Part shown: in pieces, positions 42,262-42,398 of the stretch
Layout: each line of letters starts with the position of its first letter
Position numbering within the stretch: position 1 is the stretch's first letter
Made by a program: the position numbers and the translations under genes
The notes under the pieces: generated by a model
Databases searched by the model: none
What the model saw: only the letters and a program-made list of their open reading frames with translations
Told to the model about the DNA's origin: nothing
DNA from: Heptranchias perlo
Taxonomy: Eukaryota
Direction: 5' to 3'
Assembly: GCF_035084215.1 (NCBI RefSeq)
Contig: NC_090362.1
Location: 5,580,001-5,644,000, forward strand
DNA: 64,000 bases

Positions 42262-42398
42262 TGATGTGGAGATGCCGGTGATGGACTGGGGTTGACAATT
42301 GTAAACAATTTTACAACACCAAGTTATAGTCCAGCAATTTTATTTGAAATTCACAAGCTTTCGGAGGCTTCCTCCTTCCTCAGGTGAATGTTGTGGAA
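42262..42398 (-). mobile_element. Short Penelope-like retroelement end with 11-bp TSD
   Basis: TSD aatatttttaa at 42251-42261 and 42399-42409; minus strand contains a hammerhead motif, then AATAAA, and ends ...caccggcatctccacatca. Confidence 0.75.
42349..42389 (-). ncRNA. Minimal type-I hammerhead ribozyme motif
   Basis: Minus strand ATTCAC-CTGAGGA-A-GGAGG-AAG-CCTCC-GAAA-GC-TT-GTGAAT: 6-bp stem I, CUGANGA core, 5-bp stem II, GAAA, palindromic AAGCTT in place of stem III, UH. Confidence 0.8.

Follow-up and report, generated by a model that had tools for sequence, protein, structure and literature searches.

How does a lone insert of 137 bp that carries a hammerhead motif come to lie in a vertebrate genome, and does it represent a self-cleaving mobile RNA in its own right or a remnant of something larger? 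Minimal hammerheads have been described in the pLTRs of metazoan Penelope-like elements (PLEs), dispersed as single truncated copies (Cervera and de la Pena 2014, PMC4209133), and their role in these elements has been called "still unclear" (PMC8557442). We addressed the question in a stretch of 64,000 nucleotides from Heptranchias perlo (contig NC_090362.1, positions 5,580,001 to 5,644,000), hereafter the window, in which a reading made from the letters alone, the sequence-only reading, had pointed out such an insert within a LINE and upstream of WDR61.

The insert, its target site and its hammerhead motif

The insert interrupts the 3' fragment of a LINE, which we take to be CR1-like, and is bounded by a perfect target-site duplication (TSD) of 11 bp, as the sequence-only reading had recognized (Table 1). 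That reading had also dated the insertion to a time after that of the host repeat, and this is borne out by 14 other, uninterrupted copies of the LINE, in which the two flanks abut with an overlap of exactly 11 nt; the insert is thus younger than its host. The AT-rich site in the LINE has been used repeatedly. At least 23 insertions across the genome have the same 3' junction, that is the tail end, as the window copy, and the 20 loci fetched from these 23 (L171-L190) all lie at the same position of the LINE. The other flank was located in 14 of the 20, where the inserts measure ~50-1,080 bp and differ in their 5' junctions. That the chimaera of LINE and insert was itself multiplied was also considered, and was rejected on the differing insert lengths and 5' junctions at all 14 of these flanks.

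Table 1. Positions of the features in the window, with their strand and the evidence for each
Feature	Position	Strand	Evidence
5'-truncated Penelope-like element copy, pLTR end and tail	42262..42398	-	137/137 identity to L037:1689-1825; ATG position
TSD, left copy, 11 bp	42251..42261	.	exact repeat; empty-site comparison
TSD, right copy, 11 bp	42399..42409	.	exact repeat; empty-site comparison
Host LINE 3' fragment, interrupted by the insert	41943..42580	+	flanks 92-97% identical to uninterrupted copy in L033
Minimal type-I hammerhead motif	42349..42389	-	stems, core, descriptor match, conservation pattern, covariation
Predicted self-cleavage site, after U17	42354..42355	-	standard hammerhead numbering; no excess of copy 5' ends
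Conserved segment ending at first (tail-less) 3' end; putative first RT initiation site	42299..42332	-	56,569 exact copies; 41/94 ends
Optional ~37-nt tail ending at ORF start codon; putative second RT initiation site	42262..42298	-	48/94 ends
WDR61/SKI8 coding exon	38844..38945	-	protein match, E = 1.2e-13

The type-I hammerhead that had been read on the minus strand of the insert has the layout given for it. The 5' strand of stem I (6 bp, 42389-42384) is followed by a CUGAGGA core (42383-42377), an additional A, stem II (42375-42363, 5 bp closed by a loop of 3 nt), GAAA (42362-42359), GC, UU (42356-42355) and the 3' strand of stem I (42354-42349), with a CUU triplet and an AGCU palindrome. 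The motif thereby displays the features of the minimal type-I hammerhead of PLEs, namely CUGANGA/GAAA/UH, stems I and II, an extra nucleotide after A9 and a palindromic 15-16 segment. The bare core pattern is by itself no evidence, because it matches 7 times in the window with 6.96 matches expected. A descriptor that demands the minimal-hammerhead structure matches in the window solely at this site, and one of 200 shuffled windows gives a match. Both the MFE and the centroid folds contain stems I and II (z = -2.1, with 6 of 200 shuffles equally stable), and a search of Rfam matched no hammerhead model at E<=5. One part of the earlier description needs amendment: the palindrome AAGCUU, said to take the place of stem III, is indeed there, but the active fold would pair only AGCU (A15.1-U16.1) between copies. 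The cut presumably falls after U17, where standard hammerhead numbering places it. Predicted energies are -22.9 kcal/mol for the strand-swapped dimer versus -23.8 for two monomers, and a non-catalytic dimer lies lower, at -31.7.

The gene neighbourhood is also as it had been described, with the insert ~1 kb upstream of the WDR61 promoter and in the same orientation as the gene. Upstream of the WDR61/SKI8 exon lies a CpG-rich stretch (~41000-41400) that probably represents the promoter or start region, and the insert is ~0.9-1 kb further upstream in the same sense. A C-rich minisatellite with a period of ~6-16 nt occupies window positions 40340-41000, between the CpG-rich region and the first WDR61 coding exon. 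If 20,000 promoters are assumed, about 350 of the 56,569 copies counted below would be expected by chance within 1 kb upstream of a promoter; the proximity to WDR61 thus carries no weight. Position and sense could still be taken to mean that the copy was co-opted to affect WDR61, for instance by cleaving upstream read-through RNA or as a promoter element. Against this, apart from the number of such placements expected by chance, stand the age of the copy, which is too young to show selection, its location outside the putative WDR61 transcript, the 23 or more strikes at the same LINE site, and the report that a single minimal motif does not cleave in vitro (PMC4209133). We therefore regard co-option as scarcely credible.

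A Penelope-like parent and the ends of its copies

The origin of the insert is indicated by its perfect match in locus L037, which continues upstream for 760 nt or more, into the last part of an ORF; the insert shows no private change relative to this ORF-bearing copy. It is also 96% identical to both ends of near-full units. A count of copies and a search for parents encoding RT or GIY-YIG domains had been proposed as checks on the sequence-only reading. When family copies were counted by exact-pattern search of the 3.25-Gb genome, the 34-mer formed by the conserved segment was found 56,569 times and a 31-mer across the hammerhead 17,990 times, with 0 matches for the reversed control of each. 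The shared ORF start is reached by 3 of 30 loci anchored on the 3' end of the insert. The parent unit measures ~3.08 kb (a period of 3,081-3,086 bp in head-to-tail arrays) and contains one ORF of 902 aa, which encodes both an RT and an endonuclease of the GIY-YIG type, and a single hammerhead motif that precedes the ATG by 121 nt. In loci longer than 3.5 kb, 7 of 8 start sites open an uninterrupted 902-aa ORF, and these ORFs are 98.4-100% identical to one another.

The RT domain of the 902-aa protein is recognized by Pfam RVT_1 (E = 3.3e-10). The same Pfam search gave no GIY-YIG match at E<=1, and the endonuclease motif was read from the translation, whose C-terminus has VVY...YIG with two Cys between the halves, followed downstream by R, H, H, E and N; homologues are annotated with PF01541. 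Between RT and endonuclease, 6 of 7 intact ORFs have a CX4CxxC linker, as is characteristic of Neptune. The best protein matches are shark sequences, 93% and 84% identical, and a PDB search with the 902-aa ORF returned one RT, uninformative at E = 0.56. The single ORF with an RT plus, at its C-terminus, a GIY-YIG/CCHH domain, the tandem or partial-tandem units forming pLTRs, the inverted 5'-truncated copies, the optional tail of 30-40 nt and the short TSDs are all traits of endonuclease-bearing PLEs, and the definitions in PMC8557442 put the parent among those that lie outside Penelope/Poseidon, Naiad, Chlamys and Hydra. The parent is thus a young and very abundant PLE, likely, from these sequence features, of the Neptune clade, and the insert, as the terminal 137 nt of such an element, does carry a hammerhead of the Penelope type, as had been supposed.

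Several arrays (L128:965-9175, L116:864-6958, L126:944-7224 and L110:1501-4604) consist of head-to-tail and inverted 3.08-kb units with uninterrupted 902-aa ORFs that are 99.5-100% identical. Such near-identity of intact ORFs suggests that the family may have been active recently or is active now. On contig C2 (~2.76-5.80 Mb, L247-L250), one rare variant is shared by at least 16 copies on the same strand, spaced at 110-290 kb, which points to a tandem or segmental duplication of very large size.

The ends of copies were read on contig C1, where the 34-mer's first 100 exact matches were taken in consecutive order and 6 duplicates were removed, leaving 94; negative positions count back from the first base of the 34-mer (window 42332). 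The 3' ends are bimodal, with 41 copies ending within 0-6 nt of the 34-mer and 48 ending 33-47 nt further on, while 4 run into the ORF and 1 ends in between. The second 3' end coincides with the start codon, and the last base of the window copy is the A of the ATG. An optional tail of this kind is described in PMC3846280 and is traced in PMC11167929 to two internal RT start sites. We also collected inverted (head-to-head) pairs on contig C1, retaining 20 that are held within one locus and dropping 1 more that had no shared locus. In 19 of the 20 the tail is present on exactly one arm (e.g. L114, L118, L125 and L133); 19 of the 20 have a TSD of 9-15 bp, which is 12 bp long in 12 of them. For rotifer elements too, the tail has been reported to occur on one arm, together with TSDs and with a TATA box and initiator in the pLTR (PMC3846280).

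At the other end, the 94 copies show a concentration of 5' ends at -57 to -69 (32 ends, 2.5 per nt), with 8 at -70 to -89 (0.4 per nt), 4 at -90 to -149, and 21 copies extending for 290 nt or more. A TATA-like box is situated at -89 to -99, depending on the subfamily, in 25 of 27 long references, and at -80 in one internally deleted copy. Seventeen of the 5' ends lie downstream of the TATA box at a distance of 29-32 nt, in subfamilies that have it at -91 or -97. The peak is broad, since 23 of the 40 ends at -50 to -75 with an assigned TATA box do not lie at TATA+29 to +32. In the insert's own subfamily, 30 loci were selected that extend to -64 or beyond; 18 of them continue past the TATA box and 12 have their 5' end at -64 to -71, with none between -72 and -101. 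Genome-wide, counts fall from 2,110 to 1,245 across -65 to -72 (by 41%) and to 972 across -73 to -79 (by 22%), a step that is weaker than at the loci partly because of upstream sequence variants. The window copy, which has no TATA box itself, starts at -66, ~29 nt downstream of the position of the parent's box, beside what we take to be an initiator-like sequence with its A at -68. The TATA/initiator-like layout and the positions at which copies end would together put the transcription start here, in which case the insert spans the parent's leader from that start as far as the A of the ATG that opens the ORF. On this account the insert is very probably the terminal 137 nt of a PLE, a likely run-off copy of the uncut mRNA leader that has no promoter and is probably an inert stub.

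The course of events was probably as follows. The TATA box, ~29 nt upstream of the base with which the insert begins, would start transcription ~10 nt before the hammerhead, and the endonuclease of the element would make staggered nicks at an AT-rich target. The RT would then initiate internally, using either of two sites in the RNA; for the window copy this would be the AUG-proximal site of the transcript's first pLTR. Internal initiation has been shown in vitro for the Poseidon element of an anole (PMC11167929). Running off the 5' end of the RNA, the RT would leave a copy of 100-140 nt that equals the mRNA leader without its promoter.

The same parent could also have given rise to so short a copy if the RT stopped prematurely, or switched templates by fold-back, on a long read-through RNA. 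Such elements are usually heavily truncated at the 5' end (PMC8557442), an inverted element flank adjoins 41 of the 94 copies, with many such junctions at -52 to -59, within or beside stem I, and the genome-wide loss of copies continues past -72. However, if the hammerhead stalled the RT, copies would be expected to end at or within the stems (-17 to -50), and the peak lies beyond them; the peak moreover follows the TATA offset between subfamilies, and the 30 nt upstream of it hold no ends among the 30 copies. We consider this explanation unlikely and favour run-off at the end of the leader.

The copy ends also bear on the proposal of the sequence-only reading that the insert belongs to a mobile, non-coding, self-cleaving RNA family. 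Its mobility stands, but neither its independence nor its non-coding nature does, the insert being the end of a protein-coding element. An independent non-autonomous family resembling retrozymes or SINEs, transcribed, self-cleaving and mobilised in trans, would be in keeping with the intact hammerhead motif, with the predominance of short copies over the 21 long ones and with the derivation of animal retrozymes from pLTRs in a preprint (bioRxiv 10.64898/2026.07.22.740005). Yet the insert has neither private changes compared with L037 nor a TATA box, ends differ from copy to copy, and the cut site is almost never where a copy starts. A retrozyme is a short non-coding unit repeated in tandem, each unit with a hammerhead; here the window has a single motif, and the head-to-tail repeats seen in the fetched loci are either coding units of 3.08 kb or duplications in which host flank is included. 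An independent family is thus largely refuted, and we rate it as very improbable beside a leader stub of a coding PLE.

Probable selection on the hammerhead and the fate of cut RNA

Conservation was scored in 176 of 210 anchored contexts, chosen without regard to the core. Departures from the commonest letter amount to 1.6% in the catalytic core (30/1936), 24% at N7 (42/176) and 12% in loop II (62/528), with values of 11% in stem I, 6% in stem II and 6% in the flank. Recurrent changes in the stems are mostly G-U wobbles or compensatory, with C-G to U-A in stem I and G-C to A-U or C-G in stem II. Covariation of the two stems across copies, which had been named as a check on the fold, was scored in 31 distinct variants of the 74 seen, selected as recurrent ones and members of older subfamilies, and including 2 that are 5'-truncated. 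In these, 89.7% of cells are paired, a value reached by 0 of 500 shuffles, with slid controls at 21-47%. Two-sided changes occur in 10 cells (2 of 500 shuffles as high), and the pairs with a two-sided change number 3, which is not above the shuffles (254 of 500); two of the stem pairs are broken in 11 and 13 of the 31 variants. The significance by shuffling is overstated because the copies are related. The pattern, a conserved core and stems that covary across copies, still fits selection on the hammerhead fold in the source elements, where the motif would act only as a dimer or with the help of protein.

If cut RNA were copied, it should give copies that start at -22. At this position the upstream base differs in 184 copies, and inspection of 30 of these showed 25 true junctions, which gives ~153. 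The corresponding values are 268 copies, 15 of 30 and ~134 at -21, and 309 copies, 10 of 30 and ~103 at -20, all three estimates being lowered by uncounted junctions at which the host base chances to match the element. With 47,423 copies running through the predicted cut site, <0.5% of copies start there. Cut RNA would thus rarely serve as a template, in agreement with the report of uncleaved RNA as the main RT substrate (PMC11167929). The idea that the 5' ends of copies mark the cut site, which came from 3 of the 94 ends at -20, was rejected genome-wide on the lack of a spike at -22, -21 and -20.

The base after the predicted cut site opens a near-invariant GT (window 42354-42349, minus strand; 174 of 176 at each position), and the tail has an AG after a C-rich run (window 42286-42285, minus strand). 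On these signals a leader intron between the GT at the cut site and the AG of the tail is conceivable; four contig-type sequencing runs, none of which is on record as RNA, yielded neither usable RNA ends nor a joint across the leader.

Significance and comparison with known systems

The locus itself has little weight, being one stub among tens of thousands. As a family, the ~50,000 young copies may constitute a record of germline RNA templates. We tentatively propose that the hammerhead is selected though cut RNA is almost never copied, that the stubs arose by run-off copying of the leader, and that the enzyme works as a dimer, priming the two nicked strands at two distinct internal sites, the last because of the inverted pairs with a tail on one arm and TSDs of 12 bp. 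Taken together, this is a possible account, one that may well not hold. If it is true, the family would be a Neptune-type system well suited to work on the role of the hammerhead, which might, for example, control translation of the ORF from the 5' leader rather than the making of templates. The in vitro work on PLEs consulted here concerns a Poseidon element (PMC11167929); a young Neptune-type family with intact ORFs and many countable junctions makes the questions of template and priming accessible both statistically and at the bench.

The closest experimental counterpart is PAc, the Poseidon element of Anolis carolinensis (Frangieh et al. 2024, PMC11167929). Both have tandem units and AT-rich targets, and in both a tail of 30-40 nt is defined by two internal RT start sites, putative ones in the shark. 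Uncleaved RNA is the main substrate in PAc, with no RNA ends at the cut site, just as copy ends show no spike here. The two differ in that the PAc hammerhead overlaps the start codon and its RT starts 111-118 nt inside the ORF, whereas here the hammerhead precedes the ATG by 121 nt and the tail ends at the ATG. The shark ORF also has the CX4CxxC linker, which is absent in Poseidon. With Neptune as described by Craig et al. (2021, PMC8557442) it shares a C-terminal GIY-YIG domain with CCHH and a CX2-5CxxC linker, a linker absent in Penelope/Poseidon, as well as partial tandems, inverted 5'-truncated copies and a tail at one end only. Unlike Neptune, to which that paper attributes targeting of microsatellites, the TSDs sampled here are mostly AT-rich non-repeat sites.

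In numbers, the ~4,000 minimal hammerheads of coelacanth and ~9,000 of Xenopus given in PMC4209133, in which we found no shark named, compare with at least 17,990 exact copies of a single 31-mer here. In the main texts of a mostly open-access literature we found no paper that treats this shark family or stubs corresponding to the leader of the mRNA. Animal non-LTR retrozymes (PMC7229834; bioRxiv 10.64898/2026.07.22.740005) resemble the insert in their type-I hammerhead, their relation to pLTRs and the predicted need for a dimer. They are short non-coding tandem repeats expressed as circles (PMC7229834), whereas the insert, a lone stub that derives from a coding element, is flanked by a TSD and has no partner in tandem. 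Nothing on structure is added by PMC12602865. Solitary stub insertions have been described before, and the insert in the window is an ordinary by-product of a known type of element.
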